A stretch of 64,000 nucleotides of DNA from positions 256,001 to 320,000 of the forward strand of contig CAVTRN010000002.1 of NCBI GenBank assembly GCA_963737155.1, read 5' to 3'. The position numbers were made by a program, and so were the translations under genes. This document shows, piece by piece, positions 25,407 to 50,826 of the stretch; the stretch's first letter is position 1, and every line of letters begins with the position of its first letter. The DNA comes from Nitrospirota bacterium. GTDB taxonomy: Bacteria > Nitrospirota > UBA9217. The notes beneath the pieces were generated by a model. It saw nothing but the letters and a program-made list of their open reading frames with translations, ran no database searches and was not told the origin of the DNA.

Positions 25407-26273
25407 GTGACCACATTGATCGACAAGCCATCGGGAAACCATGGCACGATGCATCGCCAGAAGGGTGGATCCAACGAGTGTCCGCCCGCCGTGGGAAACA
25501 CCGTACCTTCTCAGATATTGATCGTTGACGACGATACCGCTCTCCTCGAGCGATATGTGGAGAGTTTTTCCGACTCCTACCGAGTCGTCACAGTCCAGAC
25601 CGGCAGGGTCGCGATCGAGCGGGTGAAACGCCGCAGCGACATCGATCTCGTTGTCGTTGAATATCGGCTGTCCGACATGTCCGGCATCGACGTTATGAAA
25701 GAGATCAAGGACATTGAACCCTCCGTACTCGTTCTCATCGCCACGGCATACGGCGACGAGGAGGTGGCAGTCGAGGCATTTAGGAGCGGCGCCCGCGATT
25801 ACCTCAAGAAGCCATTCAGCATGTCCGAGCTTTCCACGAAGATCGACTTCTATCTCGCTCTCAGGCACGCGGATAAACGGCGCAGAAAGAACATCCTTCC
25901 CGGGTCCGATGAGTCGGCGCAGCCGGGAATGCCACATTCCGCCGTCACCCTCAGCCAGTACAATAAGATCCAGCAGGCCGTTCGTTTTATCAACGACAAT
26001 TACCGAACCGACATCCGCCTTGACATTGTCGCCTGGGAGGCCAGAATGTCACCGGCACACTTTTCGAGAACATTCAAAAAGGTGATGGGCTTGTCCTATC
26101 AGGACTATATCAACAGCCGCAGAATAACGAAGGCCAAGAACCTGCTCCGCACCAGCCCTTGGAATGTAACCGAAATCGCCGTCTCTCTTGGTTTTGCCGA
26201 TCCAACCGGCTTCGGCAGAATTTTCAAAAAGCTCACCGGCCATACGCCTTCCGCTTTCAGAAGCCTGCCCTAG
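25407..26273 (+). CDS. Response regulator with receiver + AraC-type HTH
   Basis: ILIVDDD...ATAYG...GARDYLKKPF, then AVRFINDNY...MSPAHFSRTFKK...EIAVSLGF.D...F.RIFKKLTG.TPS.FR. Exact start uncertain. Confidence 0.92.
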   Translation: MTTLIDKPSGNHGTMHRQKGGSNECPPAVGNTVPSQILIVDDDTALLERYVESFSDSYRVVTVQTGRVAIERVKRRSDIDLVVVEYRLSDMSGIDVMKEIKDIEPSVLVLIATAYGDEEVAVEAFRSGARDYLKKPFSMSELSTKIDFYLALRHADKRRRKNILPGSDESAQPGMPHSAVTLSQYNKIQQAVRFINDNYRTDIRLDIVAWEARMSPAHFSRTFKKVMGLSYQDYINSRRITKAKNLLRTSPWNVTEIAVSLGFADPTGFGRIFKKLTGHTPSAFRSLP

Positions 26274-26296
26274 AAGTGATTTTTTTCCCAAAAGAG

Positions 26297-26358
26297 CATA
26301 AAAAGCCGAGAGCATGTCATATATAGCCGAGACAGGAGCGGTTGACATTTGCTAAGGT
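26297..26358 (+). promoter_or_regulatory. Putative AraC-family tandem operator and promoter of the giant-protein operon
   Basis: CATAAAAAGCCGAGA (26297-26311) and CATATATAGCCGAGA (26318-26332) are 21 bp apart. The second overlaps a weak -35 (GAGACA). Extended -10 TGcTAAGGT at 26350-26358. Confidence 0.55.
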
Positions 26359-26430
26359 TATCCGCAACCGCAGCAATAGTCACATTCGTACCTCCGGATC
26401 ACAGCCCGTGAGAAAGGAACAAGGTGCCGT

Positions 26431-29400
26431 ATGTGCTCGAAGCGGAAGTCTTCAAAGTTGGGAAATTTCCTTAAGGCCCTTTTGTCATGGGGAATAAGGC
26501 CCGGTTTTACGTTTCTCCTCTTTTTCCTCCTCATAGACACGGCCCACTCCGCAGAGGCGGCGAAGATCAAGTGCTCCGTAGCGCCCGCTCCTACGGAGGC
26601 GGTGCAGAAGAACAACCCCGCAAACCAGACTACCGCAACCATCGGCGTGCCTTTCACCTATACCATCACGGCGCCGGTCCAGGGAACCCAGGACCAGGTG
26701 GGGTGCCTCAGAGTTACCAAGTGCGCGGACGACATAGCGGTATCGAATGTTATTGTCACCGACGACCTCACGAAGACGGGCGCGTCCCTTACGTACGTTA
26801 TGAACGCCGCCTACCTGGTGAATACCGCAAGCGGCGCGCGGACTCCGGTAAACGGAGGCGTGCCCCTTGTTTTAGGCGCAAGCAGCTCCTGGCTTTCAAA
26901 CCATCCCGGGATACTGTCCGATTCCACCAAGCACCTGGTATTTTCCTATGAAAATAATCCAGCCCTGGCGTCCATCCCGGCCGGAGACAACATCGAGATA
27001 GACCTTACGGTCGTCCTTGACAACGTCCCGTCGAACATAGCGCAGACGCAGTTTTCAAACACCGCCAACATGTGGTTCGACAAGACGACTAACGGGACCG
27101 TCCTGACGAACCAGGAGGCCCTGCCCGGCACAACGCCGCCCATGACGATCGTCGAGCCCAACCTCGTTGTCACGAAGACGAGTTCGGTTTCGAACGTCTC
27201 CACCGGATCAAAGGTGCTTTATACCGTGAATGTCCAGAACATCGGCGCGTCGGGCGCATGGAATACTACGGTCACCGACAATATCCCTGCCGGCATGTGC
27301 ACCTATGACGTAAGGCCCACGATAACCGCGGCGATTTATGCCGCCGACGGCGTCACCCCGGTCTCGGGGCCGCTCGCTGCCGGCACCGACTTTGCGGTCA
27401 CCTGGAACGGCGGGACCTCGTCATCCTGCCAGCTGACCCTTGCCCTTTTAACGCAAAAGGCCATGATCGGGCCCGACCAGCATTTCATCGTAACCTACCA
27501 GGCAATGCTCGATAACGGCATATCGTCCGGCACGTTCACCAATGTGGCCGGCGCCACGCTCTGGTATAGCGCGAGCAGCTCCTATAGCGGCCGTCGCGAG
27601 TACAGCCGGACGCTCACCAATGGAACGCCCGGGGTTCTCGATTTCCAAGACGCCTGCACCGTCACGGTGGCCTCTTCCAACTATTATCTCCTGAAATCGG
27701 TCGGAGATTTGACGACTGGCGTATATCCGGCAACGTCAGCCTTCCCCGGCGACACGCTCCAGTATACGCTCCAGATCCAGAACTTCACCGCAGCCACGAT
27801 GAACAATATCAAGATAACGGACGACCTCGGTGCCCTGAATGGAGCCAACTTCTTCACTGCAGGCTCGCTTTCCCTTGCCGGCACCAACCTCCCCGCGGGG
27901 ACCTATAGCATCTGTCCCACCTGCGGAACGAACGGGTCAGGTACCGTCACTATAAGCGGCCTTACGATCGCCCCCAATACGCAGTACCAGATCCAGTTCA
28001 ACGTTACGCTGGGAGGAAGCTTATCGAACGGCACCATTGTCAAAAACCAGGCAAGCCAGACCGGCACCGATTCGGCAACCCAAAAATGTTCCGGCGTGAG
28101 CACCAATCCGAATACGAACGGGCCATCACCCCTTGGACAGACAAGCGATGTCACCTCCGTCAACATCATAGTGCCGGCTGGCCTGACGAAGACGTCTCCG
28201 GTTCCCGGGACCGCAACGATCGGGCAGCAGTTCAGCTATACCATCACGGTGCCTGCCGCCCCGGCAAGCGCCACCCTTACCGATGTACACATCCTGGACA
28301 GCCTGCCCCCGAACGTGAGCTTCGTAAGTGCTTCAATAGTATCGGGAGGCACCTGGAACATCATCAGTACCGGCACCGCGACCAGCCTCGTCCTCCAGGA
28401 CTCGGGCAGCGGCATCGACATACCCGCAGGCGGCCAGGCCGTCATCAAGGTGACCGTGGCCCTTAATAACATGTCTGCAAACGTGAGCGGCGTGTCCTTC
28501 ACGAACAGCGCATCGTATACCTATACCAAGAAAAAAGGATGCGGCGCGACAACGACCACGACCGGCGGTTCGGGAACCAGCGCCCCTATGACGGTCGTCG
28601 AGCCGCACCTCACTATCACGAAATCGGTGAGCTATTTTTCGCCGTCCGGCACACCGGCCGGAAGCCCCGCCGCCGTGGGTGACGTACTTCTCTATACCAT
28701 CACCATGGCCAACAGTGGAAATTCAACCGCGTATAATGCCGACGTCATCGATACGCTACCGCCCGGCACAGCGCTTATCGCCGGTTCCGCCACGGCAAAT
28801 ATAAACGGATCTCCGGTGGCCGGATTCAATCCGACCCCGGCCGTTCTAGCCGACGGCGTCATGGACTGGGGCTATCAGAATGGAGATAGCAGCCTAGTCA
28901 TACCCGCAGGCGGGAAACTTGTGGTAACGTTCCAGGCGAAAGTCTCCTCGGTTACCGGAACGCCGATCGTCAACACCGCCTATACGGCATGGACATCGCT
29001 TGCGGGCAGTAATCCCGGCATGCGTACCGGCGCGGGCTGCCCGAACATCACACAGCCCAACAACTATTGTTCCGGCCCTGCCACGGCAACTGTGACATCG
29101 CAGGACCCAACGGCCCTTTCTAAAACCGTGGTCTCCGGCACCTGGAACGGCGGACCAGGAGCCGCCACCCTCCGCATAGGCGACACCGCCCTTTACAGCC
29201 TGGCACTGACCGTCCGTTCCGGAACGACCCAGAACGTGGTGGTGACAGACACGCTTCCCGCCGGACTCTTCTATGACGGCATGGTGTCCATCGCCCCCGC
29301 CTCGGGCGGAAATTTCACTTACGCCGTTTCTTCCCAACCGTCTCTGGGCGCTACCGGGCTTTTGACCTGGAACCTCGGGAACATTTCCAATCTATCGGTC

Positions 29401-32400
29401 GGCAGCGCCGCCACCAGCACACTGACCATCGAGTACCGGGCAAAAGTCATGAAGAACGCGCTTTCACAGACGCCCGTAAAACAAATTTTGACCAACAGCG
29501 CACAGGTCAGCTACGCGATTAACGGCACCGACATGGCTCCCAAAACATCGAGCGCCGCCGTCAACGCATGGCAGCCGGTGCTCGGCGTTTCCAAGACTGC
29601 AGCAGCTGCTGCCGGAGGCGCCGTAGTTAGCGCAGGAGAGATCATCACCTATACCGTGAGTATCGCGAACACTGGAGCGGCGCCCGCCTATGATCCCGCG
29701 CTCGCTGACACGCTTCCCGTAGGGATGCGCCAGGGCGGCGTTACGACTACCGGCGTCACACTGGTAAACACCGCAACTAATGCTATTGTGACGGCGCTTC
29801 CTGTTCCGGCATCCGCATATATCTCCTATAACGCTGCCACTGGAGTCGCCACATGGAACTTCGATACGGGAGTCGCCGATGCCTACAGCATTCCATCCGG
29901 CGACACCCTTAAGGTTACTTACCAGGTCAAGGCAGACAGCACTGTAGCTTCCGGTATCACCCTGGCCAACAGCGCCTTTATCCAGCATTATTACTCGTTC
30001 GACAGCGTTGACGTGCCGGCATACAGCGTGGTTTCCGACAGGCAGGTTTACGGGCCGACCAGCGCAGCGACCGCCATGCTCACCACCTCTTCGGTTGTGT
30101 CCGCCTACACTTTTACCGTCTCGGCGCTTTCTAAGCAGTCCCTGGTTACCACCGCAGCGCTCGGTCAGCCTTTCACCTACCGCATCACGGTACCGGCCGC
30201 GACTAGCCCTAACGCAATGTATAATATTTCGGTCACCGATAATATCGGACTTCAGGCGACCGGTGTGTCCCTTGCCTATGTGGGAGCAAACGCAAGCCTC
30301 GCGTCAGGCGCCAAGTCCTGGGCGACCCTTGCCAATACCGGGATCGCCTCAAATCTTGTCCTTTCCGACACGGTAAGCGGGGGGCTGTACGTCCCAGCCG
30401 GAGACCAACTAATCGTAAACCTTACCGTGGTCCTTACTAACGACACGACCGACAATGTAACCGGCAAGCAGTTCACGAACACGGCGGATTATACATTCAA
30501 TACAGTGAACGGTAACAACGCCACGGTGACGTCGGGCGCTCCCGGAACGAGCTCTCCCGTTACCATCGCGGGTCCAAATCTGACTATGACGAAGTCCGGC
30601 CCAGCGACCATGAGCGTCGGCACGCCGGGCACCTTCACGCTCAACGTGCAGAATGCCGGAACCGCTCCGGCGTGGAATACGACGATAATGGATGTTCTTC
30701 CAAACGTGACCACGCCGGCCAAGGGCGGTATGTGCGGCCAGGCCCCGGCAAACATCACGGCGCGCATTTACCAGCCGGACGGCGTCACGCCGGTCACCGC
30801 CGTCTTGGCAAACGGCACGGACTATGCCGTAGCTTTCACGGGCCTTTCCGGAACACCCGCCTGCACCCTGACGGTTTCCCTGAAATCTACCGCAGCCACT
30901 GCCATTGCTCCGGCTAACCGGCTGATCATCACGTACCAAGCTTCTCTGGACGCAGACACAGTAGGGGGCATTGCCCTAACCAACATCGCAGGCGCAACGG
31001 GATACCAGAGCGCGAATCCGCAAGCCACCGGCGCCTCCGGTAACGTATATACCACGACGAACGTCCTGACGAACGGCACGCCGGGTATCCTTGATTTTCA
31101 GGATGCCTTTATGGTCACTTCGGTAGCCACGGTCGGAAGCTCTGTTCTGACGCCGGTCATCCGCGTACAAAAGACAGTCCAGGACATTACCTCGGGTACC
31201 CAGACCGTATCGGCGGGGGACACCCTGAAATACACCATCACGGTGAACAACATCGGTACAGAAAACGCCGTGGGCGTGACGGTTAGCGACACAATTCCCG
31301 CGAACACCACCTATGTGCCGAACTCCACCACCCTGAACGGATCTGTGGTAGCCGACACCAGCCCCGGCGTTTCCGCTCTCTTAAACAACATGCTGATCAA
31401 TGCCCCATCAAACCCGATACCGGGCGACATGACCGCCGATCCTACTGCCTCAGCCGCCAATACGGCAACCGTCTCATTCGAGGTGAGGGTAAGCGCAAAT
31501 CTGGCTGCCGGCACCGCTATTTCCAACCAGTGCTATGTGAACGGATCCGGAGCGGGGGGCAGCCCGGTCCCGACACAGCCTTCCGGAAACCCTAACAGCT
31601 CTACGCCGAACAGTCCAACCTCGGTCATAGTTGGGAATCCGCCGGTCCTCTCCGCGCAAAAAACTGCAAAGCTCGCCGTGGACATTAACGGGAGTGGCCT
31701 CATGGAACCGGGTGACACCATCCAATACACCATCACCCTTGCCAACTCCGCCGCAGTTCCGGCTTCCGGCGTCGTTCTTACCGACGCAGTCCCGGCAGGC
31801 ACGGCCTATGTGCCTGGCAGCACCACGTTAAACGGCAGCGCCGTAGCCGACGCCGCCTCCGGCGTGTCCCCGCTGTCTTCCGGCATGCCCGTCGTTTCCT
31901 CGAATTCCACAGGAACTTCTTCTAGTGGATCCTTTGCCGCGAACGGTACCGGGACCGTCACCTTCAATGTAAAGGTGAACGCCGGCGTGACATCCGGAAC
32001 GGCCATCTGCAACCAGGGCACCGTGTCGGCAACCGGCATTACGTCCTTCCTGACCAACGCAAGCGGCAGTTCCGCAAGCAGTCCCCAGCCGACCTGCGTA
32101 ACGGTCGGAAGCGCCGAACAGCTTTCCATCACCAAAACGTATGTCGTAGTGGGCGGAGGCTCGCCGCTTCCTGGAAGCACCATTCTGTACACGGTCACCG
32201 CCACGAATACCGGCACGGTCCCGGACACTAACGTTGTGATCACGGATGACCTTACCGCAGTCCTTACACAGTCTACCTATGTCGCAGGATCCGCTGCAAT
32301 GAATGGCTCGGCAAATGGCGTCAGTTTCCTGTCGTCTTTGATCACGGCAAATTACGGGACCGCCGCAGGCCAGCTTGCGCCAGGAGCATCGGCGGTGCTT

Positions 32401-35400
32401 ACCTATAGCGTCAAGCTGAACGGCACGGCGGCTTCCGGCACGGTCGTCACCAACACCGCCCAGGCAGCCTGGAACACGCCACAACAGACGGCGACGGCAA
32501 GCGTCTCCTTCAGCTTAGGATTTCAGCAGGGCGGCTTCTCCGGCAGGGTATGGCAGGACGCCAATTTAAACAAAACGTACGAAACCGGGGAGCAGACGTT
32601 TTCCGGATGGACGGTTAATGTTTACCTGAACGGCCAGGTCATCCATACCGCGTACACCGCAGCCGACGGTACCTACCAGATAAGCGGCCTCGCTCCCAAT
32701 GCCGGAACTTCGAACACATACATGATCCGATTCAGCGCGCCAGGCGCCGGCACGAACACGGCAATGCTGGGATGGGCCGATTCACCGTTCACCAACGGCA
32801 TGCAGCAGATATCGAATATTGTCCTTCCTTCGGGGACAAGCCTGTCGAACCTGAACCTCCCGCTTACCCCCGACGGCGTCATCTACGATTCCGTCGCCCG
32901 CACCCCGATAGCTGGCGCCGCGCTTGTCATGCTCCAAGCCTCCACACAGTCGCCCCTCCCAGCCGCATGCTTCAACGATCCTGCGGCGCAGGGACAGTTA
33001 ACGCTTCCGGGAGGATATTACAAGTTCGACCTGAACTTCAGCGACCCGTCGACCTGCCCGTCAGGCGGAGACTACCTGATACAGGTCACGCCGCCCCCCT
33101 CAGGATACATTGCCGGACTGTCAAAACTTATACCGCCGACAACGGACGCCGTCACGCCGACCTTCTCCGTCCCGACCTGCCCTGGCAGCCCGGCAGACGC
33201 CGTCCCTTCGATCACCGGTTACTGCATGGCAGAGGCTTCCGTCAAGCCGCAGCCGGCCTCGGTGCCAGCCGGACCCGCCACGGACTATTACCTCCATCTT
33301 ACGTTAAGCAGCGCACAGCCCGGGGACAGCCAGATATACAACAACCACATAGCCATCGATCCCGTGCAGAGCAACGCGATCGCCATCACGAAGACCTCAA
33401 GCGTGACGAACGTCACGCTCGGACAGATGGTCCCGTACACCATTTCCCTGACCAACACCCTTTCGGCCAATCTTACGAACCTCGAAGTCGTCGATACGCC
33501 ACCTCTCGGATTCAAGTACGTAGCCGGCTCCGGCATGGTGGACGGACAGAAGGTCGAACCGGCGAAGAGCGGGACAGAGCTAATCTGGAACATCTCCACT
33601 CTCGCTGCGAATTCCCAGCACACCATAAACCTCATGCTGATCGTGGGGGCCGGGGTCACGAACGGCGATTATGTGAACCACGCCCAGGTATTAAACAGCG
33701 TCACCGGGGCCGTCCAGGCCGTAAATAATGCCGCAGGAAACGTTCCGGCCGTGAACAAGTCGGCCACCGCCGTCATAGCCGCTCCGGGCAGCGCCGCCTC
33801 GGCTGTGGCAATTGCCACGGTCCATGTCGCGCCTGATCCTACGATGGACTGCACCGACATTATCGGCAAGGTGTTCGACGACAGGAACGCGAACGGTTAT
33901 CCGGATACTGGAGAGCCGGGACTCCCCGGAGTGAAGGTCGTAACGGCAAACGGCCTCATAGCGACGACGGACAAGTTCGGCCGGTTCCACATCACGTGCG
34001 CCGCGTTCCCCGATGCCGACCGTGGAAGCAACTTCATCATGAAGCTCGACGACCGGACGCTGCCCTCGGGCTACCGGGTCACCACGGACAACCCGCTTGT
34101 ACTCCGGATTACCTCCGGAAAGGCTGCGAAATTCAACTTCGGCGCGACCCTTCACCGCGTCGTGCGCCTGGATATCGCAGACGGTGTTTTCGAACCTCAA
34201 ACGTCCGCGATGCGGGAACAGTGGAATATCCGGATGGACACTCTCTTAAGCGAACTGAAAAAATCCCCGTCCGTCCTGCGGATTTCCTACCTCGCGGACG
34301 CCGAGGATCGAGCGGAAGTATCTGACAGGATCAGCGCTATCAAGAATACGGTGTCGTCCCTGTGGGGAAAGGGGCCTTACAGGCTAACTATCGAGACGGA
34401 AGTCTACTGGCGGCGCGGGGGGCCTCCCGAAAAGCATTCATTTGATACATCATCCGATATCGCCACCGCCGGAATTTATACGCCTGCCTTCCCGGACATG
34501 TCTTCGTCACCAGGAAACGGCGTATCCGACGCGGCAAGCCTGGGCCATGCTGTCGAGAGGCACGCGGCCGCCGATATACCGCGGACCATGTGGGAATTTA
34601 ACTTTGATGCTCCTCTCTCTGAAACTACTTTTACACTTGACGACGGCTTTACCTTATCGTCCTTCCTCGGACGGGATGAAGAGCCGCAAACGGTTTCCGG
34701 CATGACGGGAACGGATTTAACGTCCCTGCCGACAACGACCACGGGAAAGGCGGTCAAGACCATTAAACTTACCGACCTCGTGCCACCCCTCCACTACGGA
34801 TCGGGAGAAGCGGACATCCCGGATATGTATGTCAAGCATCTTAAGGACATCCTGTCTGGCATGAAGGGAAAGAACAACGTCCGCCTGCACCTCGTGGGAC
34901 ATACTGACAATGCGCTCTTGCTCGGGGAAGCCAAAGAGAAGTACGGCGACAATACATCGCTTTCCCGTGCACGTGCCGGTGCCGCAGCACTTGCTCTCGA
35001 GAAGACACTGGGACTTCCCGCTGGTTCTGTCACCTATGAAGGCGTCGGCGAAGCGGGCTCTGCGGTAAGCAACGCGACATTCAAAGGACAGGAAGCGAAC
35101 CGCCGGATCGAGGTTCAAATCTGGTATGACGAAAACTCCAACAGCACTCTCGACAACGGTGGCCTCAACCCGGACCGGGTCGACCGCGTAAAGGTCTGCC
35201 GCGTCGAGACGTTATGCAAGCTCAGCTACGAGGACGGTCTGGCTAAGCGCGCCCGGATACGGAACATCGTTCCGCCGCTTCATATGGACGGAAGTACTTC
35301 GGCCGTATCCGAAGAATTCATCTCCAGCGTGCGCCGGGTGCTCGATGACCTGCGGACGAAGGAACACGTCATCGTCAAATTCATCGGGTATACCGACAGC

Positions 35401-39708: not shown

Positions 39709-39826
39709 GAGATATGGGATGTCCAAGGCCTTTACAGTGAATGATGAAAACAGGAAACCGGACAATCCTGTTGCCGCAATTTCAAAGAAGCATAAAAAAG
39801 AATTTTCCGAATGGGAGGGAATCAAG

Positions 39827-40342
39827 ATGTTTTACCGGCTGGCAGGCATCGTGGTTACGGTTTTCGTACTCTGTATTTACTCTTCCGCTTACGGAGCGGA
39901 CATCACCAAGGAAGAGCTGAAGGGCCAGGACGAACAGGTCCAGGATATCAAAAGCGATGTCCTTTCTATCTCCGCCGAGCTCGAAAAGCTCGAGGAAAAG
40001 CTTTTGTACCCGTCCAGCACGGAGGTCTCGGTATTCGTGTCCCTGGAAGCAGGCGAAACTTTCACGCTCGACGCGGCGGATATTACGATTGACGGAAACA
40101 CTGTCGCCCGGCATGTCTACACCTTCAAGGAGACCCTTGCCATGAGAAGGGGCGGGGTAGAGCGCATCTATACCGGCAATATCAAGACCGGCGACCATGA
40201 CCTCACGGTCCTTGTCATCGGAAAAACCGGGGGAGGCTCCGACCTCAAGGAAACGGAGCACTTCAAGGTCACCAAGGATGTCGCTCCCAGGATCGTCTTG
40301 GTCACGCTTTCCGACCAGGGCATAACGGAGAACAGCAGGTAA
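39827..40342 (+). CDS. Secreted protein (coiled coil + beta-sandwich), first accessory gene of the glt-like cluster
   Basis: GGAGGG RBS before ATG 39827, signal peptide ending AYG-A, heptad segment, then a beta-rich domain. Confidence 0.8.
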   Translation: MFYRLAGIVVTVFVLCIYSSAYGADITKEELKGQDEQVQDIKSDVLSISAELEKLEEKLLYPSSTEVSVFVSLEAGETFTLDAADITIDGNTVARHVYTFKETLAMRRGGVERIYTGNIKTGDHDLTVLVIGKTGGGSDLKETEHFKVTKDVAPRIVLVTLSDQGITENSR

Positions 40343-40345
40343 AAC

Positions 40346-42229: not shown

Positions 42230-45200
42230 TGATAAACAGACGCCTTCCTTATATTCTATTCGCTCTTTCGCTTCTTTCCGCCTCCTGCCAGGCTCCCCGC
42301 CCAACGGACACGCTGGGAAGTCTTCGCGGAGAGCACATCGATATCAAGGAAGAGCGGATCACGGGCGGCCTCGACAAGGCCATGGAAGGGTACCAGCGTT
42401 TCCTCGAAGATACGCCGGAATCCTCCAAACTGAAGCCCGAGGCAATGCGCCGTCTGGCGGATCTTAAAATCGAGAAGGAATACGGCGTTCTTGAAGGCGG
42501 AGCGGCAGGGCTCGTGAACCGCGCATCGTTAAGCACCGCGACTCCGCCTTCCCCGGAGCATGAGTCGCAGTCCGATTTCGAGAACAGGGCGGGAGCGCTT
42601 TTGGAAGGGGAGACAGCAGCGCCGGGAAGCCTTGAACGTCGAGGCGCCCGCGAGGCCATTGCGCTCTACCAGAAACTTCTTAGCGAATATCCCCATTACG
42701 AGCACAAAGACGATGCGCTCTACCAGATGTCCCGGGCCTACGATGAACTGGGGGAGGCCGACCTCGCCATGAAAGCCATGGGCAGGATGGTGCGGGACTA
42801 TCCCGCATGCCAGTACATGGACGAGGTGCAGTTCCGGCGTGCCGAATACTTCTTCACCCGGAAGCGCTACCTGGATGCCGAGGACGCGTACCAGAGTGTT
42901 ATCCACAGGGGACCGGGTTCGTATTTTTATCAGCTCGCCCTGTACAAGCTCGGATGGACATTCTACAAGCAGGAGCTTTACGATGAAGCTCTTGGCAGCT
43001 ACGTTGCGCTTCTCGATTACAAGGTCAAGACGGGCTACGATTTCGCGCAGGCCGCCGACAAGATGGAGAAAAAACGCATCGACGATACTTTCAGGGTGAT
43101 AAGCCTCTGCTTCTCCAATTTGGGAGGGCCCAAGACCGTTGCGGAATACTTCGTAAAGCACGGTCCAAGAAGCTACGAGGACGGCATCTACAGCAATCTC
43201 GGCGAGTTTTACTTCGACAAGCGCCGGTATGCCGATGCGGCGGCAACATACAAGGCTTTTGTCGGCATGAACCTCTTCCACAGGAAAGCGCCTGCATTTG
43301 AGATGCGGGTGATCGATATCGATATCGCCGGAGGGTTCCCGAGTCTCGTCATCGATGCGAAAAAGGAGTTCTCCAGGACGTACGGGCTTGATGCCCCCTA
43401 CTGGAAACACTACAAGCCGGAAAACCGTCCGGAGGTCATGGCGTGGCTCAAGACAAACCTGACCGACCTGGCAAAGCATTACCATTCGCTGTACCAGGAC
43501 AAGGAGCAAGCAAAGGACAGGGGGACCAACTATGAGGAGGCCATGCACTGGTACAGGCAGTTCCTCGCTTCCTTCCCGAAAGACCTGGTTTCTCCGGCCG
43601 CCAATTATCTTCTGGCTGACCTCCTCATGGAGAACGGCGCATACGGCCCGGCCGCGGCGGAATACGAAAAGACATCTTACGGCTATCCCCGCCACGGCAA
43701 ATCCGCCCAGGCCGGCTACGCCGCCGTCTACGCCTACCGCCAGGAACTTGCCACTGCGGCTTCGGAGCACAAGGACGAGGTGAAGCGGAAGGCCGTTGCC
43801 TGCTCGCTCAAGTTCGCCGCAACTTATCCGGAGCATGAGAAGGCGGCTATAGTCCTCGGAGCCGCCGCGGACGATCTGTACGGGATGAAAGACTTCGAAC
43901 AGGCGCTGGCCGCCGCGAGCAAACTCGTCCTTGCCTACCCCAAGGCCGATGCCGATATCATGAGGGAAGCCTACGTCGTTATCGGCCATTCGACCTACGA
44001 GCTTCACCGCTATGCCGAAGCCGAGGCCTCCTACGGTAAGGTGCTTTCGCTCCTCCCCGCCGGAGATAAAAGCAGGGACGGGATAAGCGACAACCTCGCA
44101 GCATCCATCTACAAAGAGGGCGAGCAGGCCAGCCTTGCCAAGAATTACCGTGCCGCAGCAGACAATTTCCTGCGGGTGGGGCAGACGGTGCCCGCCTCCA
44201 AGATCAGGGTCAACGCCGAATACGACGCGGCGACCGCCCTCATTCTGCTCAAGGACTGGAAAACGGCAGCGTCCGTCCTTACCGGGTTCCGCGATAAATT
44301 CCCCAGGAGCGACCTCCTGCCCGAGGTGACCAAGAAGATCGCCTACGTTTACCGCGAAGACGAAAAGTTCGGCCTGGCGGCCGGCGAATATGAACGCATC
44401 GAGACAGAATCGAAGGACGATGTTATACGGCGCGCATCTCTAGAGACCGCGGCGGAACTCTACGACAAGGCCGGCGACCGGGACCGCGAGCTTGCCGCAT
44501 ACCGGCTTTATGTGGACCATTTCCCGCATCCCGCCGAACCCAACATGGAAACGCGTGCAAAGATCGCCGCCATGCTTAAGACAAACGACCATAGCGGGTA
44601 TCTCGCCGAGATTACGGACATGGTGGCAGTCGACGCTTCCGCCGGGTCGGAGCGCACGCCCCGTACCCGGCATCTGGCCGGCACCGCCGCACTCGTTTTG
44701 GCCGAGCAGACTTTTGGCCGGTTCACCTGTGTAAAACTGACGGAGCCGTTCAAGGAAAACCTTGAAAAAAAGAAGGCACTGATGGAGGCCTCATCGCAGG
44801 CAATGAACAAGCTCCTGGATTACGAGGACGGACTTGTGACCTCGGCCGCGACTTACTATCTGGCCGAGATTTACGCGGATTTCGGCAGGGACCTGAAGGA
44901 GTCCGAGCGTCCCAAAGACTTAAGCCCCAAGGATCGGCAGGAATACGATCAGGCGATCGACAGCCAGGCTTCCCCGTTCATGGAGAAGGCCATAGAGACG
45001 CACAAGAGCAATCTCGATCTCATTTCGCGCAGTATTTACAACGAGTGGATCGAAAAGAGCCTGGAAAGGCTGGCCGTGCTCGTTCCCGACCGCTACAACA
45101 AGACGGAAGAGGAGAGCGACGTCATCACTTCGCCGGACACCAACCTCTATGCCGTCAAACGCCAGGATGAGCCCGGGGCCCTGACAGAAAAAGTAACAGC

Positions 45201-45288
45201 ACCGCAAAGTGAACAAAAACTCCTCTCTTCGCCGTCCGGGACGGTCGTACCGGCACGTACGGCGACGAAGGAACAGGAACCAAAATAA
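42226..45288 (+). CDS. Large TPR lipoprotein (GltD/AgmU-like)
   Basis: Lipobox SASC; many TPRs (ALYQMSRAY, EVQFRRAEYFF, ALYKLGWTFYK); C-terminal YYLAEIYADF...SERP..L......Y...I..QA.PF.EKAIE. Confidence 0.85.
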   Translation: MMINRRLPYILFALSLLSASCQAPRPTDTLGSLRGEHIDIKEERITGGLDKAMEGYQRFLEDTPESSKLKPEAMRRLADLKIEKEYGVLEGGAAGLVNRASLSTATPPSPEHESQSDFENRAGALLEGETAAPGSLERRGAREAIALYQKLLSEYPHYEHKDDALYQMSRAYDELGEADLAMKAMGRMVRDYPACQYMDEVQFRRAEYFFTRKRYLDAEDAYQSVIHRGPGSYFYQLALYKLGWTFYKQELYDEALGSYVALLDYKVKTGYDFAQAADKMEKKRIDDTFRVISLCFSNLGGPKTVAEYFVKHGPRSYEDGIYSNLGEFYFDKRRYADAAATYKAFVGMNLFHRKAPAFEMRVIDIDIAGGFPSLVIDAKKEFSRTYGLDAPYWKHYKPENRPEVMAWLKTNLTDLAKHYHSLYQDKEQAKDRGTNYEEAMHWYRQFLASFPKDLVSPAANYLLADLLMENGAYGPAAAEYEKTSYGYPRHGKSAQAGYAAVYAYRQELATAASEHKDEVKRKAVACSLKFAATYPEHEKAAIVLGAAADDLYGMKDFEQALAAASKLVLAYPKADADIMREAYVVIGHSTYELHRYAEAEASYGKVLSLLPAGDKSRDGISDNLAASIYKEGEQASLAKNYRAAADNFLRVGQTVPASKIRVNAEYDAATALILLKDWKTAASVLTGFRDKFPRSDLLPEVTKKIAYVYREDEKFGLAAGEYERIETESKDDVIRRASLETAAELYDKAGDRDRELAAYRLYVDHFPHPAEPNMETRAKIAAMLKTNDHSGYLAEITDMVAVDASAGSERTPRTRHLAGTAALVLAEQTFGRFTCVKLTEPFKENLEKKKALMEASSQAMNKLLDYEDGLVTSAATYYLAEIYADFGRDLKESERPKDLSPKDRQEYDQAIDSQASPFMEKAIETHKSNLDLISRSIYNEWIEKSLERLAVLVPDRYNKTEEESDVITSPDTNLYAVKRQDEPGALTEKVTAPQSEQKLLSSPSGTVVPARTATKEQEPK

Positions 45289-45316
45289 GAAGAAGGCTTG
45301 CGGCATGGAGAAGACA

Positions 45317-46003
45317 ATGAAGGACAGAAAGGGATTTCTTTTAACAGTGTCCGGATGTAAGTGCATAGCCGCAGTATTGTTCCTTGCCGCCCTGGCCATT
45401 GCTCTCTCCGGCTGCGCCACCGGAGCAAAGGGCCTGCCGAAACCCGCCCTGACCGTAGCATTTACGGGGCCGTCCGTGGAAAGGCTCGCGGACGGACAGC
45501 AGGGGTTCGTGATCCATGACAAGCCCATCACGGATGCCCGGGCCCGCGAGGAATTTGACCGCGCCGTCAAACTCCTCTCCGACGGGAACAACGGCGGGGC
45601 CATCGAGCTTCTTTCCAAGGTGATCGAGCAGACGCCCCTGGTCACGGCTCCCCATATCGACATCGCTGTGGCCTACATGCGGTCCGGTGAGACCGTGACG
45701 GCCGAGGCCCACCTGAAGACGGCGCTCGGCCTTATCCCCGGCCATCCGGTTGCCAGCAATGAATACGGGCTTCTTCTCCGGAGGGCAGGCCGTTTTAAGG
45801 AAGCCAGGGAAGTCTACCAGAAGGAGACTGCGCTCTTCCCGGAATACCTGCCGGTCCACAAGAATCTCGGCATCCTTCTGGACCTGTATATGAATGACCC
45901 GGAAGGCGCCCTTCGTGAGTTCAATACCTACATCGCCGGCGAACCTTCGGACACAAAGGTAAAAACCTGGATTGCCGAACTGAAGACACGGCTCAAACGT
46001 TAG
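45317..46003 (+). CDS. TPR lipoprotein (GltE/AglT-like)
   Basis: GGAG RBS before ATG 45317, lipobox LSGC, TPRs and NLGILLDLYM......A...F..Y...WIAELK. Confidence 0.85.
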   Translation: MKDRKGFLLTVSGCKCIAAVLFLAALAIALSGCATGAKGLPKPALTVAFTGPSVERLADGQQGFVIHDKPITDARAREEFDRAVKLLSDGNNGGAIELLSKVIEQTPLVTAPHIDIAVAYMRSGETVTAEAHLKTALGLIPGHPVASNEYGLLLRRAGRFKEAREVYQKETALFPEYLPVHKNLGILLDLYMNDPEGALREFNTYIAGEPSDTKVKTWIAELKTRLKR

Positions 46004-46022
46004 GTGATAGGGAGGAGAAAAC

Positions 46023-46352
46023 ATGTTTCGGAAAGCACTTCTTTGGTTTTTCCTGTATCTTTGTTTGGCGGGAATTGCCGTCGCCGGAGACAATGAACCG
46101 GCGGCCAAGCGTACATTAACATTGGCACAGGAGAAAAATGATGCGAAGACGGGTGAAGCCAAGAAGCTTTCCGGAATGTCCATCGTTGGAAACGACGAGG
46201 CCCCCAAAGCTCTTTACATCGTGCCCTGGAAAAGCTCCGAGATGGGTGAAGGGGCCGGTTTTAATATGGTGCTCGATGCTTCGGACACGCCCGTGGACCG
46301 CGATGTGTTCAAGCGCCAACTGGAGTTCTACGAACAGAGCACCAAAAAATGA
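46023..46352 (+). CDS. Small secreted protein (GltF-like)
   Basis: GGAGG RBS, signal peptide ending AVA-G, LSGMSIVGNDEAPKALYIVPWK motif. Position next to the GltE-like gene matches gltF. Confidence 0.7.
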   Translation: MFRKALLWFFLYLCLAGIAVAGDNEPAAKRTLTLAQEKNDAKTGEAKKLSGMSIVGNDEAPKALYIVPWKSSEMGEGAGFNMVLDASDTPVDRDVFKRQLEFYEQSTKK

Positions 46353-46389
46353 CATCGCTGTCAGAACAGCTAAAAAAGGAGGAAACACA

Positions 46390-47088
46390 ATGTTTATCGT
46401 ACGGTTTTTTCAGAAGGGCGGTTTGTTCATGTTCCCCATTTTGTTCGTGCTCCTGATCGGCCTGGTCATCGCGATCGAGCGCTGGATCCACCTGAAGCGC
46501 GTCCGGGAGGAGAACAAAAAAACGTGGGACAAAATCTGTCCCGCGCTGGATAAGGGTGAGTTCGACAAGGCCCGGGAAATCGCCAGCAAAGACACGTCAT
46601 CCATGGCGCAGATGCTCTCCATGGGACTGGCCAGGCAGGGCGCGGTCAGGCGCCGCGAGGACATCGAGATCGCCATGGAGGAAAGCATGATGGAGATTGT
46701 CCCCCAGCTGGAGAAGCGCACGCCATATCTTGCGCTCTTTTCCAACATCGCCACCCTGTTCGGGCTTTTGGGCACGATCATGGGTCTCATTATGGCTTTT
46801 GCCGCTGTGGCCACCGCAAGCCCGGCGGAGAAGGCGGCACTCCTTGCCGCCAGCATTTCCGAAGCAATGAACTGCACCGCCTTCGGCCTGATGTCCGCGA
46901 TCCCGCTCCTTTTGCTCCATGCGAAGCTCCAGACGAACACGGGCCAGATCATAAACGGCCTTGAGATGGCGGCGGTCAAGTCATTGAACGCCATTTCCAG
47001 CTTCACCAAGCGCCAGTTCGAAAGGACCCAGGCGTTACCGGGCGACACTATGACAGGAGCCGACCATGTTCAAGCGATATCGAAATAA
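46390..47088 (+). CDS. MotA/TolQ/ExbB proton channel subunit (AglR-like)
   Basis: AGGAGG RBS; GGLFMFPI, IAIERW, NIATLFGLLGTIMGLI.AF and ISEAMNCTAFGL..AIP motifs. Confidence 0.93.
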   Translation: MFIVRFFQKGGLFMFPILFVLLIGLVIAIERWIHLKRVREENKKTWDKICPALDKGEFDKAREIASKDTSSMAQMLSMGLARQGAVRRREDIEIAMEESMMEIVPQLEKRTPYLALFSNIATLFGLLGTIMGLIMAFAAVATASPAEKAALLAASISEAMNCTAFGLMSAIPLLLLHAKLQTNTGQIINGLEMAAVKSLNAISSFTKRQFERTQALPGDTMTGADHVQAISK

Positions 47089-47581
47089 GAGGAACGCGAA
47101 GAAACCATCGGATTTCGATACCGACATCATGCACCTCATCAACCTGACGCCGATGATGGACATCCTTACAGTCTTGGTGGTCTTTCTGCTCATCACCGCC
47201 GTCTTTATCAGCATAACGATCGAGGAGCTTGCCGTACCGACTGCAGCCGGCGCGGAGACGCACAGCATGCCGAATTTCGCCATCGAGGTGATTGTCCGCA
47301 GGGCGGGACTCGAGATTGCCAATGGTTCGGTGGTTTCGGACAGGATACCCAAAAAGGACGACCAGTATGATATCGGGGCGCTTACGAAGACGCTCATTCG
47401 CCTTAAGGCCCAGTACCCGGATAAAGAGGATGTTTCGGTCCTGATGGAACCGGACATCAAGTACGACCACCTCATCGAGATCATGGATGCGGTACGAAGC
47501 ACCAACGCGGTGCCTGAAGGCGGCGGAGAGGCCAGAAAAATCGAACTCTTCCCGAAGATATCCATAGGAGACGCGCCATGA
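47066..47581 (+). CDS. ExbD/TolR subunit 1 (AglQ-like)
   Basis: INLTPMMDILTVLVVFLL with the conserved TM Asp; YDHLIEIMDAVR. Confidence 0.92.
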   Translation: MFKRYRNKRNAKKPSDFDTDIMHLINLTPMMDILTVLVVFLLITAVFISITIEELAVPTAAGAETHSMPNFAIEVIVRRAGLEIANGSVVSDRIPKKDDQYDIGALTKTLIRLKAQYPDKEDVSVLMEPDIKYDHLIEIMDAVRSTNAVPEGGGEARKIELFPKISIGDAP

Positions 47582-48060
47582 GGGCCACAAGACGCATGAA
47601 ACGGATGGAGCGGAACAACACACGGGGGGTGATCAAGGGGCTCGGCATAAACCTTATCCCGATGATGGACGTTCTCACCGTCCTGGTGTTCTTTCTTCTT
47701 TTTCACTCGTTCAACAGCACCCTGCCGGACGCGCAGATCGCGCTTCCCGATTCCGCTGTCCCGACCAGGCCACGGGAAACGGTTGCGATTGTGGTAAGTC
47801 CCGAATCGGTTATGGTCCAGGGTGAATCCGTGGTCAGCACTCCCAAGCTCCTTGATGACGGGGTCGTGATGGTCAACGAACTACGGGACCGGCTTTTGCA
47901 GATCGGGAACGGTGCAAAGGCTGCCGCCGAAACCATGGAGGTCACGCTTCTCGCCGATAAGACGATACCGTTCAAGGTGCTGAAGAAAATAATGTCAACC
48001 TGCACGGCCTGCGGATACGGAAGGATATCCCTTGCCGTGGCGGAGAAGGCGGAAAAATGA
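47578..48060 (+). CDS. ExbD/TolR subunit 2 (AglS-like)
   Basis: INLIPMMDVLTVLVFFLL; ADKTIPFKVLKKIMSTC...GY..ISLAV. Confidence 0.92.
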   Translation: MRATRRMKRMERNNTRGVIKGLGINLIPMMDVLTVLVFFLLFHSFNSTLPDAQIALPDSAVPTRPRETVAIVVSPESVMVQGESVVSTPKLLDDGVVMVNELRDRLLQIGNGAKAAAETMEVTLLADKTIPFKVLKKIMSTCTACGYGRISLAVAEKAEK

Positions 48061-49445
48061 CGACGGCCATTTTAGAAGAGGAACTATCCCAGCTTGACGT
48101 CCAGACCCAAAACGCCCTGAAACGGCTAACCGCCCTGGAAGAGGATCTTCGGGCCGTGGACGCAGAGCTGGGAACATTCGCCACCGACCGGCAGCGCTTT
48201 GACGCGCTTAAAGACGTCTTAAGTTCCCTCGACAAGCTTGGAGAGCTCAAGGCGGGCGAGCTCTTTTGGGCAGGACTCGCCGAACAGCAAAATGCCGAAG
48301 TACACCTCAAGCGCGCGAGGAACCGGGTCGCGTTTTTCGAAGGCGATATCAGCGGAATCCTTGAGAAGAAGGCGACCCTTCAGGGAGAGATAAACCGGAG
48401 TCTTGACGAACTGGCCTATCTCCAGGAGGTAGTGCGCGAGGCGTATGAGCGCGACGAACGGCGCGAGGAGGAATATTTCGTCGACCGCGAGATTTCGCCC
48501 GTTCCCAATCACACGATGGCGCTGCCGGGGGACGATCGTTCCGAGAGCGAACGGCGGTACCGCAGGTCACTCCTTGTCGCGTTGCTGTTCTATATCCTGT
48601 TCGGAGCCGTCATACGTCTCTGGGTGCTGCCGCCACCGGAACAGCCCACCATTACGAAGGTCCCCGAACGCCTTGTCTCCATGCTCCGGAAGGAGCCGCC
48701 CAAGCCCGAGCCGCAGCCCCCGCGCCGCAACGAGGAAAAGAAGCCCGAAACAAACAGGCAAAGGGTGCCGGAGAAACGGCAGGAAGAAAAACCCAAGGCC
48801 ATGGTTTCGGAAACACAGACCGTACAGAGTAACGTGGAGCATACGGGGGTCCTTGCCTTCAAGGAGTCCTTGAAGGGTCTCTTGGACGAAGCCCCCGCTG
48901 CCCGTCTCGGAACCGAGGCGCGTCTGAATAACCAGGCGGCCGTGTCCGCAGGCCAGGCCCGTCCAAGCCGGTCTCTCGTTGCCCTGCAGTCGGCGGGCGG
49001 TTATAGCGGCGGCATCAGCAGCTCCGGGATCAGCCGCTCGATAGGCAGCGGAAACGGACGGCGTATCGGCGCAGTCGGGTTCACCCGGGTGGAAAACACG
49101 ATTGCCGGGGTGGCGGGAGATGCGAGGCCGGTTTCATCCGGGCCCGGGCCGGGCCGTACCGATGAAGAGATCCAGATTGTTTTCGACCGGTACAAGGCGT
49201 CACTCTACCGGCTCTACAATGCACAGCTCAGGAAGGATCCAACGCTTCGGGGCAATATCATCTTGCGCATCATCATCGAGCCGGGCGGTGAGGTTTCTTC
49301 CTGCACGGTGCAGTCGAATAACCTTGCTTCGGAAGTGCTTGTTTCACAGGTTGTCGAACGGGTCAAGAAGTTCAACTTTGGGCCGAAAGAGAAGGTATCG
49401 AGACTTATCATTCTGTACCCGATTGATTTCCTGCCTGCAGTGTAG
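48057..49445 (+). CDS. TonB-like energy transducer with AgmX/PglI (GltG-like) C-terminal domain
   Basis: Cytoplasmic coiled coil, single TM, Pro/Lys/Glu-rich then Gly/Ser-rich linker, and RTDEEIQIVF...LY...LRKDPTLRG.I...IIIEPGGEV...YPIDFLP. Confidence 0.88.
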   Translation: MTTAILEEELSQLDVQTQNALKRLTALEEDLRAVDAELGTFATDRQRFDALKDVLSSLDKLGELKAGELFWAGLAEQQNAEVHLKRARNRVAFFEGDISGILEKKATLQGEINRSLDELAYLQEVVREAYERDERREEEYFVDREISPVPNHTMALPGDDRSESERRYRRSLLVALLFYILFGAVIRLWVLPPPEQPTITKVPERLVSMLRKEPPKPEPQPPRRNEEKKPETNRQRVPEKRQEEKPKAMVSETQTVQSNVEHTGVLAFKESLKGLLDEAPAARLGTEARLNNQAAVSAGQARPSRSLVALQSAGGYSGGISSSGISRSIGSGNGRRIGAVGFTRVENTIAGVAGDARPVSSGPGPGRTDEEIQIVFDRYKASLYRLYNAQLRKDPTLRGNIILRIIIEPGGEVSSCTVQSNNLASEVLVSQVVERVKKFNFGPKEKVSRLIILYPIDFLPAV

Positions 49446-49794
49446 CTTTGCAAGCGGGGGACGGCAAACCGGGTTCCTGGTACGGAAGAGGACTCTTGAC
49501 CGCAGATGAAGGCGTGGGTAAATAGGTGCAAAGTGCGATCAAAAATAACAGTGATAATTTGCAATGTGAAGTCCTCCCCGTCTCGATGACACTAATCCGA
49601 AACGCTTTGTAAAAGGGATCGAGATACTCATGAATCACGTTGAGAAGACATTAAACACGCCGCTACATGAAAGAGGAAAGACAGCATTTTGACCACCAGA
49701 ATAAATCAAAGATTCATGATGCGAAGTTTAATGAGTATACGTCTGTAGCTTAGGAGAAAAATTTTTCAGGTTTAAACAGAGCTTTTCTGGGCAA

Positions 49795-49880
49795 GTTGGG
49801 TTCGAGATCCGAAAGTCGTCGGTTCAAATCGGCCGCCGCCAAATTGTCAAGGGGTTACAGCATTAGCTGTAACCCCTTTG
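49795..49880 (+). repeat. Eroded tRNA-fMet 3' fragment + hairpin, copy A (probable att scar)
   Basis: GGGTTCGAGATCCGAAAGTCGTCGGTTCAAATCGGCCGCCGCCA followed by TCAAGGGGTTACAGC-ATTA-GCTGTAACCCCTT. Confidence 0.7.
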
Positions 49881-49951
49881 TCGCCTTGTTGGGCCGCTTG
49901 CGGGCCAGTCTTCACAATAATGTTTTCGCAATCGAAAAATGAGAGGTGGCA

Positions 49952-50617: not shown

Positions 50618-50826
50618 AGATAAACATTACGTAGCGGTTTATCAAGTTCGGATGAGCTGGAAGATGCTCCTCACAACTAAAGCGCAAGATGCAATACGCG
50701 ACCTGTGGGGCTCCCAGCTGTTAAGACCGATGGTTGTGTTATATGGACAAATCACTGTGACTGAGGAACGAACCGATTAGGTATGGTCCTCTACGGGCTA
50801 TTGTAACAAAAGAGTATCGAAAGAGA

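Follow-up and report, generated by a model that had tools for sequence, protein, structure and literature searches.

A giant fusion gene beside an Agl-Glt-like motor gene set in a Nitrospirota bacterium and its relatives

Gene layout of the locus

Here we describe a cluster of eleven genes at positions 25407-49445 (+ strand) of a 64,000-nucleotide stretch of DNA, hereafter the window (G000:C2:256001-320000), from a genome of 4.84 Mb, two contigs and 49.4% G+C whose closest relatives are Nitrospirota. Nine of the genes appear to encode a proton-driven motor set of the Agl-Glt core type, and they stand beside a gene for a protein of 4425 amino acids (aa). That gene is a lineage-specific fusion: in most carriers its two parts are neighbouring genes of their own, one for a repetitive stalk, the other for a predicted outer-membrane (OM) barrel protein. 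The locus contains the whole of a widespread ten-gene envelope module and, in addition, a lineage-specific regulator; dozens of genomes carry the same gene set again, and this recurrence far exceeds chance. The motor set is a known, published, uncharacterised core complex; what is new here is the fusion, the linkage of the barrel/stalk pair with the motor, and the asymmetry of that linkage. The genes and the parts of the giant protein are as follows.

25407-26273, +, REC-AraC regulator (Response_reg 82.3 bits, HTH_18 82.1 bits)
26431-39708, +, giant 4425-aa protein: DUF11-type repeats, OmpA and barrel region
26431-34428, +, giant protein module 1 (aa 1-2666): signal peptide, DUF11-type and isopeptide-forming pilin-like repeats
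34429-34542, +, fusion linker (aa ~2667-2704; alignment A2)
34543-36147, +, start of module 2: N-terminal motif and three OmpA-like domains (Pfam OmpA, PDB matches, A2)
36148-39708, +, rest of module 2: two predicted beta-sandwich domains and barrel region (AlphaFold2 (AF2) model)
39719 or 39827-40342, +, p207, secreted protein of ~145 aa (207 or 171 aa by start)
40346-42229, +, TPR627, TPR protein with a plain signal peptide (TPR_19 30.8 bits)
42226-45288, +, TPR1020, TPR lipoprotein (lipobox LSASC; tol_pal_ybgF and BamD matches)
45305-46003, +, TPR264, TPR lipoprotein (lipobox LSGC; TPR_14 44.2 bits)
46023-46352, +, p109, secreted protein of 109 aa (no family match)
46390-47088, +, TolQ/ExbB/AglR-like putative proton-channel subunit (MotA_ExbB 84.8 bits)
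47066-47581, +, ExbD/TolR/AglQ-S-like subunit 1 (ExbD 58.3 bits; transmembrane Asp)
47578-48060, +, ExbD/TolR/AglQ-S-like subunit 2 (ExbD 60.4 bits; transmembrane Asp)
48057-49445, +, GltG-like TonB-type protein of 462 aa (NF033768 53.3 bits)

The eleven open reading frames (ORFs), verified by ORF listing and translation, all run in one direction and mostly abut or overlap. Their co-orientation, the two TPR lipoproteins and the intact transmembrane Asp of the ExbD-like proteins are as the original prediction gave them; all can be read directly from the ORFs, the lipoboxes and the ..PMMD.. motif. Genes 3' of the giant gene are spaced by -23 to +37 bp, the exception being 118 bp ahead of p207 if p207 starts at 39827. 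G+C content is 51.5-59.6% in the eleven genes and 42-49% in the flanks, and the giant gene contains both of the highest-G+C 5-kb windows of the whole genome.

The giant protein is a fusion of two genes

By its family matches, module 1 is a DUF11 / isopeptide-forming pilin-like repeat protein, with isopeptide bonds predicted. Its first 2470 residues match TIGR01451 (304 bits, 10 stretches) and TIGR04226, RrgB_K2N_iso_D2 (219 bits, 5 stretches), and module 1 also matches DUF11 (8 stretches, Pfam), DUF7619, DUF7927 and SdrD_B. It closes with a conserved ~200-aa domain (aa 2470-2666) ending ..LTIETEVYWRRGGPP. Conservation in the stalk protein is highest over the last ~200 residues, where sequences from different phyla share 56-70% identity; a sequence search of this C-terminal domain against the PDB gave weak SdrD B-domain matches only (E 0.038).

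Relatives of the giant protein were sought through its barrel. A single barrel sequence found no relatives; a query built from alignment A1 found at least 554 related loci in species genomes, and the best 80 of these, on which the window proteins were run by tblastn, are the basis of the linkage counts given below. Among the 80 loci the barrel ORF usually has ~1700 aa and its own signal peptide, and a separate DUF11-type ORF sits directly upstream, stopping a few residues past a conserved ..LTIETEVFWRRGGPP. The two genes are split in 65 of the 68 assessable loci and fused in 3 (L002, L003, L064). In alignment A2, which omits loci that aligned locally to the second OmpA domain, all 32 of the 32 separate barrel proteins have a signal peptide followed by the motif G-E-A-V-E-R-H-L..D....W. 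At the junction in the window there is no second signal peptide; a 38-residue linker follows WRRGGPP (aa 2660-2666), and the motif is kept as LGHAVERH (LGHAVERH..D....W) at aa ~2704-2711. The linker thus stands where the split loci have a stop codon, an intergenic spacer and then the second gene's signal peptide.

The fused form is carried by the window, by same-genus relatives and by one gammaproteobacterial metagenome-assembled genome (MAG; L064). Open frames of 4291-4655 aa occur in three further genomes of the genus—these overlap loci L003 and P0005 and come from related strains, hence are not fully independent—and in family-level relatives the protein has ~1716 aa. Given these frames, we rejected an assembly artefact as the source of the giant protein. 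The expectation of one giant protein is therefore borne out for this genome, in a single 4425-aa ORF, and not for most other carriers, in which the same parts are two proteins. A protein search with the last 946 residues returned 69 relatives of 2433-7744 aa that share the domain set; in the 957-3047-aa band, at least 1667 clusters were found among 8000 candidates scored, the 120 listed being mostly of 1650-1830 aa. The listed ~1700-aa relatives are often named 'OmpA family protein' or 'flagellar motor protein MotB'.

Domains and predicted structure of the barrel protein

OmpA-like domains bind peptidoglycan in the periplasm. Module 2 has three domains of the OmpA C-like kind at aa ~2776-3210 (Pfam OmpA PF00691, 66.8 bits, 3 stretches; TIGR03350 type_VI_ompA, 111 bits), which match TssL, OmpA-family and OprF C-domains in the PDB by sequence, and peptidoglycan binding is predicted for them. 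They are followed by ~1200 residues without any family match, for whose barrel region no Pfam family was found, and the protein ends in ..NMIGEF.

AF2 modelling of the last 946 residues with 18 rows gave a mean confidence score (pLDDT) of 62.6, and of the last 1186 residues with 71 rows a pLDDT of 68.7 and a pTM of 0.55. The model lays out two beta-sandwich domains (aa ~3274-3494) and then a stretch of ~930 residues rich in strands (aa ~3495-4425), which ends in F and has at least 29 long strands within its last 550 residues. Best Foldseek matches are to LptD, then to TonB-dependent transporters and SlpA, at low TM-score (LptD 0.20-0.25); VIA-align of model residues 256-1186 gave maltoporin (Z 15.7), FimD (14.2), MtrB (14.2) and SprA (12.7). 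With both models, Foldseek and VIA-align named generic OM barrels only and no specific translocon family. The models support a very large outer-membrane beta-barrel, and nothing more specific. An autotransporter beta-domain (type Va; C-terminal ~280 aa, 12 strands) gave no family match; the predicted barrel region has ~930 residues and at least 29 long strands, in a model of moderate confidence.

Three side observations concern this gene. In a Desulfuromonadales MAG (L026:9164-12721) it has one in-frame stop, at about residue 859 of the last 1186. Microbulbifer sediminum has two tandem stalk and barrel pairs ~16 kb apart on the same contig (L039/L040), after a single motor set. A separate family of ~2000-aa proteins, found at G078:C9:269355-271913 and in ~15 other Nitrospirota genomes, is ~26-31% identical to the barrel region; for most of these proteins the likeness is confined to the region's first ~350 residues.

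A motor set of the Agl-Glt core type

The genes for one TolQ/ExbB-type and two TolR/ExbD-type proteins are adjacent and overlap, the arrangement that marks the Agl-Glt core. The TolQ-like protein matches MotA_ExbB (84.8 bits) and reaches 73.8 bits with the tolQ model, under its cut-off of 221; the ExbD-like pair reaches 37.9 and 30.6 bits with tolR against a cut-off of 127.3. Both ExbD-like translations keep the Asp in their single transmembrane helix (..PMMDILTVL.. and ..PMMDVLTVL..). The GltG-like protein has a cytoplasmic coiled N-terminal part, one transmembrane helix, a Pro/Lys/Glu-rich linker and a TonB-like C-terminal domain of the AgmX/PglI type, which scores 53.3 bits with NF033768 (56.9 in the genome search) against a cut-off of 40 and has a mean column identity of 74% over 18 loci. 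A gliding_GltG profile covers aa 207-456 at E 1.7e-8, and a GltJ profile reaches the protein only via the shared C-terminal domain. Pfam TonB_C stays under its cut-off (18.0 bits, E 0.004, against 24.6), as does tonB_Cterm.

The remaining proteins are less readily named. TPR627 is secreted, with a long helical C-terminal half, and is 45-77% identical across loci. TPR1020 passes the tol_pal_ybgF cut-off (104.3 bits against 90.1) through 4-8 stretches of repeated units and matches BamD at 73.5 bits; TPR264 has weak matches to gliding_GltE (E 1.5e-5, 24 bits against 225) and to Tgl. For TPR627 and TPR1020, NCBIfam gave no Glt-named match even at E up to 10, and we liken them to GltC and GltD by size and position alone. 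Both small secreted proteins are constant members of the module: p207 recurs in both gene orders described below and in paralogous clusters, has no Pfam/NCBIfam match and in an Atlas search met clusters of hypothetical proteins only; p109 is 46-80% identical in the loci and has no Pfam/NCBIfam match.

Taken together, these matches support the assignment of the motor, TPR and TonB-type genes to the Agl-Glt core type. That part of the original prediction which rests on the TonB-type protein stands, its C-terminal domain being AgmX/PglI-like where TonB_C failed; a call of Glt over Tol for the TPR proteins is not reached, because the best named matches of TPR1020 are to YbgF/CpoB- and BamD-type units.

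The housekeeping Tol-Pal system is the nearest familiar relative. With its CpoB (YbgF) it shares a TolQ/TolR-type stator, a TolA/TonB-type transducer, YbgF-type TPR units and an OmpA-like OM component; in contrast, Pfam/NCBIfam found no TolB and no Pal lipoprotein in the cluster, the C-terminal domain here is of the AgmX/PglI type, and canonical Tol-Pal lies elsewhere in the genome, where TolB (389.9 bits, over cut-off; C2:1193690) stands beside a TolQ-type gene at C2:1.19 Mb. We therefore rejected the cluster as housekeeping Tol-Pal and regard it as an extra system. It might still work as a Tol-Pal-like tether, in which proton motive force (PMF) positions a peptidoglycan-binding OmpA-barrel, anchoring a DUF11 surface layer and stabilising the OM with no transport or movement. 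The YbgF-level score of TPR1020, TolQ as the best named stator match and the three OmpA-like peptidoglycan-binding domains would all suit a tether, and the OmpA and TPR proteins of a Fibrobacter cluster are read as a wall-anchored surface complex in the text of PMC6851124. We nevertheless hold this to be rather improbable: the genome already has a full canonical TolQ-TolB locus, the transducer domain is of the Glt type with no TolB/Pal-type lipoprotein nearby, and a barrel region of ~930 residues is unneeded for tethering alone.

TonB-type import is another use to which such parts could be put—the barrel would be an energised importer of a bulky substrate (polysaccharide fragments or mineral-bound nutrients), the DUF11 protein its capture arm, and the GltG-like protein its TonB. 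ExbB/ExbD/TonB-like parts are present, TonB-dependent transporters are among the structural matches, and carriers include polysaccharide degraders (Microbulbifer, Cellvibrionaceae) as well as iron and sulfur oxidisers; the text of PMC6851124 proposes that the Fibrobacter cluster imports cellodextrins. However, the barrel protein has no TonB_dep_Rec or Plug family match, the structural matches are generic and porins outscore the TonB-dependent transporters, and TonB_C falls under its cut-off where the Glt-type domain exceeds its own. To our knowledge, neither OmpA-like domains nor a set of three TPR proteins belong to any known TonB-dependent uptake system, and we count this against import as well; on balance we regard it as unlikely.

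The cluster's TolQ-like gene is one of nine MotA_ExbB loci in the genome. Two of the loci with ExbB-type and TonB-like genes, G000:C1:1263630-1264907 and G000:C2:2105682-2106959, have equal or near-equal scores, suggesting a duplicated segment.

The barrel/stalk pair stays with the motor set

In 31 of the 80 loci the motor genes lie directly downstream of the pair, in the window's order; 19 of these have all nine genes, and 12 are cut by a contig end but are consistent. Another 28 have the motor upstream on the same strand, in the order p207-TPR627-TPR1020-TPR264-p109-TolQ-ExbD-ExbD-GltG-like-stalk-barrel. Three of these were verified gene by gene on fetched DNA, 24 are placed by a TPR1020 match 11-30 kb upstream on the same strand, and one by a GltG-like match only. 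A single locus (L065) is unlinked, its TPR1020-like and GltG-like genes being ~950 kb away in the same genome, and in the other 20 the contig ends in or near the gene, which leaves them undecidable. The pair is thus beside the motor set in 59 of 60 determinable loci, and the linked loci span Nitrospirota, Pseudomonadota, Thermodesulfobacteriota and Acidobacteriota. The original prediction had staked its case on homologues of the giant protein not usually lying apart from the motor, and the neighbourhood survey, with the barrel part as its probe, came out in its favour.

Genomes outside the window's order were covered with TPR1020 as the marker protein throughout our genome surveys. Among the 49 loci lacking downstream matches, 36 were searched, the other 13 being on short contigs; the marker is present in 34 of the 36 genomes, and neither of the two others, both small MAGs, has a GltG-like match. 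When gene order is mapped on a FastTree tree of the barrel region (71 rows; the midpoint root serves drawing only), the giant-first order takes at least two changes, so gene order has changed while the genes remained together. Alignment A4 omits L026, for its in-frame stop; L040 duplicates L039 and was dropped. In the tree the Nitrospirota clade is nested among Pseudomonadota rows, which, with the G+C contrast at the locus, fits acquisition by transfer.

Transfer also bears on whether the association has any functional meaning, since the giant gene and the motor set could be neighbours merely by descent or by island co-transfer. The block is the highest-GC stretch of its genome and has insertion sequence (IS) elements nearby, one genome has the two parts 950 kb apart, and some motor sets occur without the pair. 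Yet linkage in 59 of 60 determinable loci across four phyla, in two gene orders that arose more than once, and the marker in 34 of 36 genomes of other order make an absence of functional coupling hardly credible.

Relation to known systems

The motor set itself is published, so the idea of an undescribed operon type does not survive for this part of the locus (PMC3169522, PMC3858216, as far as their main texts go). In its main text, Luciano 2011 (PMC3169522) describes Group B genes (gltC, D, E, G with aglR, Q, S) as one cluster in Gammaproteobacteria, a betaproteobacterium, Geobacter and Fibrobacter; there the core complex is of unknown function and insufficient for motility, most carriers are not known gliders, and the core cluster has 'an additional gene' without Myxococcales homologues. 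Wartel 2013 (PMC3858216), again in its main text, presents the core as a basal transport machinery that stands alone and may owe its specialisation to its cargo. Our cluster shares with this core one TolQ-like and two TolR-like genes, a GltG-type transducer, three TPR proteins and a single operon, as well as a patchy, seemingly horizontal spread over the same kinds of taxa (Desulfuromonadales, marine Gammaproteobacteria). It differs in that those main texts name no OM partner or cargo, whereas here the DUF11 stalk and OmpA-barrel protein are constant neighbours, fused in this lineage. Glt proteins are not a subject of PMC12204202. No link of a DUF11 or OmpA-barrel protein to the Glt core was found in the main texts searched; the supplementary cluster drawings (PMC3169522 Fig. 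S1, Table S3; PMC3858216 Fig. S9) may show neighbours.

The Agl-Glt gliding and Agl-Nfs spore-coat systems of Myxococcus xanthus have the same type of motor and periplasmic scaffold, and one motor serves either Glt or Nfs outer modules, a parallel to the client-like barrel/stalk pair. In the M. xanthus model, as given in the text of PMC11761067, GltG has GltD as its binding partner, and GltC makes the bridge to the OM porins through their N-terminal segments in the periplasm. The outer part differs. Pfam/NCBIfam at the thresholds used found no TonB_dep_Rec, VWA, autotransporter or GltA/B/H/K-type match in the eleven proteins, in agreement with the lack of GltA/B/H barrels, GltK and a TonB-dependent receptor first reported for the cluster; none of the Group A parts (GltA/B/H, GltK, GltI, GltJ, GltF, CglB) was found there either, in a search that took in these eleven proteins and not the rest of the genome, and no FHA domain was detected. 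The outer module would instead be a huge wall-anchored barrel protein and a stalk. A true gliding machine as in Myxococcus, with the stalk as substratum adhesin, would draw on a core set of the AglRQS and GltC/D/E/G type (PMC3169522, main text), and a long isopeptide-type stalk would bear load. It is very unlikely all the same: Group A proteins (GltA/B/H/K, GltI/J, CglB-type VWA) were not detected in the cluster, the core genes do not suffice for motility in carriers that are mostly not known gliders (PMC3169522, main text), and wall anchoring by OmpA-like domains would speak against a travelling complex.

Fibrobacter succinogenes offers a possible counterpart. As set out in the texts of PMC6851124 and PMC8092306, FSU_2396 (OmpA), FSU_2397/2398 (TPR), FSU_2400 (TolQ-type), FSU_2401/2402 (ExbD) and FSU_2403 (TonB-type) are highly co-expressed and cellulose-induced, and FSU_2396 and FSU_2397 were found in one complex with a 180-kDa fibro-slime adhesin. 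The authors of PMC6851124 read the OmpA and TPR proteins as a wall-anchored surface complex and propose the cluster as a cellodextrin importer. FSU_2396-FSU_2404 has its annotated functions in the same order as our cluster, but its adhesin is encoded elsewhere and belongs to another family.

Two further groups invite comparison. Type IX/gliding systems (GldLM, SprA, SprB) also couple a PMF motor via the periplasm to a very large OM barrel and a giant repetitive adhesin, but the protein families are unrelated, with SprA giving one generic barrel match (Z 12.7). LapA in its OM pore, ushers and two-partner systems likewise have a barrel encoded beside a long repeat adhesin, with a conserved terminal domain as possible anchor; they use type I secretion, chaperone-usher or TpsB routes with no proton motor, whereas here the putative anchor is C-terminal and the barrel protein has OmpA-like domains.

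Proposed working of the module

We think it probable that the barrel/stalk pair is an exchangeable OM client of a PMF-driven Glt/Tol-like transducer, whose motor powers export, display or loading by a mechanism that we infer. The nine motor genes would make up a core Agl-Glt machine: the TolQ-like and two ExbD-like proteins as stator, the GltG-like protein as transducer, three TPR proteins as scaffold, and two small secreted proteins. The fused gene would supply two functions, a stalk of DUF11/isopeptide Ig-like repeats and a ~1700-aa OM protein (N-terminal peptide, three OmpA-like domains, two beta-sandwich domains, barrel).

TolQR/ExbBD-type stators convert proton flow into movement of a TonB/TolA-type partner. 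Here the stator would turn proton flow into movement of the GltG-like protein, which the TPR scaffold would relay to that part of the wall-anchored barrel protein that lies in the periplasm. Because of the OmpA-like domains, the N-terminal part of module 2—its conserved N-terminal peptide and OmpA region—would be periplasmic, where the TPR and GltG-like proteins could reach it. The fusion sets the C-terminal domain of the stalk beside the N-terminus of the barrel protein, which makes it probable that the barrel holds the stalk in its lumen or at its periplasmic face, with the repeats threaded outward. The barrel would grip the stalk by this conserved domain while the repeats reach the surface, and the motor would thereby drive the export of the stalk, its display at the surface or its mechanical loading. 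How the parts are oriented, which of them touch, which way transport runs and what the module does for the cell are all inferred, with adhesion as our leading guess for the last.

Several points weigh against this account. The tie of TPR627 and TPR1020 to GltC and GltD is one of size and position only, and the named matches of TPR1020 are YbgF/CpoB and BamD. Contig identity in 24 of the 28 upstream loci was taken from coordinates and strand. The barrel models are moderately confident (pLDDT 62.6 and 68.7), with generic structural matches. Physical contact between the pair and the motor proteins is presumed only, and surface exposure of the repeats is assumed; the stalk may be periplasmic. Lastly, motor sets occur without the pair. 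Among 401 sampled genomes of the window's phylum, those with orthologue-level TPR1020 (at least 53% identity) all belong to the window's family: 26 of 63 genomes, and G000 itself. They include 7 of 14 of the genus. In twenty of these 27 genomes the barrel lies a few kb away on the same contig, and in 2 on another short contig; 5 have no orthologue-level barrel match. Of the four among these five that were fetched, G155 contains the full set from p207 to the GltG-like gene, and no related gene was found over 11 kb upstream and 9 kb downstream of it; G151 and G266 have no barrel or stalk within ~3 kb upstream of the motor set, and G179 has none within 10 kb downstream, its contig ending 0.8 kb upstream. 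Two Microbulbifer genomes hold a paralogous motor set (TPR1020 31-33% identity) with no barrel or DUF11 neighbour, running from p207-like to GltG-like genes, in which p109 was not detected.

Dependence thus looks one-sided, because the pair is almost never seen without the motor and the motor is sometimes seen without the pair. The proposed coupling of giant protein and motor stands as linkage, in this one direction; it is not mutual, since motor sets exist without the partner.

Beyond the single locus, we would offer tentatively, as a possibility short of even chances, that a wall-anchored giant barrel with an isopeptide-type stalk was the original cargo and outer module of Agl-Glt machines—an undescribed proton-powered pathway in at least several hundred species of many phyla, in which a very long and mechanically tough adhesin would pass through a barrel of its own and then be held or loaded, with Myxococcus gliding and spore coat as later re-uses of the motor. 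The role of the Agl-Glt core outside gliding bacteria has been open since 2011, and a constant neighbour is a concrete candidate for its cargo and OM end. Cultured carriers (Microbulbifer species, Alcanivorax, Alkalilimnicola ehrlichii, Thiohalomonas denitrificans, Sulfurifustis variabilis) make knock-outs and surface-exposure assays feasible. If the Fibrobacter cluster is homologous, the module bears on that bacterium's cellulose binding; even if our reading is wrong, the annotation of ~1700 protein clusters is corrected, many of them labelled 'flagellar motor protein MotB' or 'OmpA family protein'.

Two side observations were made on module copies. In Microbulbifer donghaiensis (G015, L106:14376-L107:1147) the genes upstream of the barrel-less set are of the PSD2 (DUF1585), LamG/cytochrome c-like and ApbE kinds, and these might be partners of that set. 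Module copies with in-frame stops or fragmentation, in TPR1020 and barrel, occur at G187:C3:796993-800053, G263:C8, G275:C6 and G245:C5; the module seems to be decaying in some lineages.

Regulator and genomic setting

The REC-AraC regulator (25407-26273) has 55.1% G+C, like the remaining block. A copy with 72-93% identity lies 5' of the DUF11 gene in all six of the Nitrospirota relatives fetched, and none was found beside the module in the other 80 loci except a 28% match in L050; the regulator is a member of the locus in Nitrospirota only. In five of the six relatives (L118-L123) the full copy is followed by a second, N-terminally shorter REC-AraC copy, placed before the stalk gene. The window has, 5' of its regulator, a hybrid PAS histidine kinase with a receiver domain (20305-23466, +), which was not found at this place in the six relatives.

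Five soil-metagenome runs contained 14-22% of the sampled window words, with no RNA run listed among them. Four such runs gave pieces of 35-307 bases, and six pieces of at least 150 bases matched the window exactly; none spans the junction 34514-34717, hence they have no bearing on the fusion or on expression.

No clear intrinsic terminator was found 3' of 49445 (3 sites against 2.2 expected). The stretch that follows, 49446-53944, is gene-poor with 41.9% G+C, and a few kb downstream of the high-GC block lie an ISL3-family transposase (53945-55210, -) and an IS3-type integrase (56803-57558, +). An unrelated small OmpA and DUF4398 protein is encoded 18 kb upstream (7185-8063, +).

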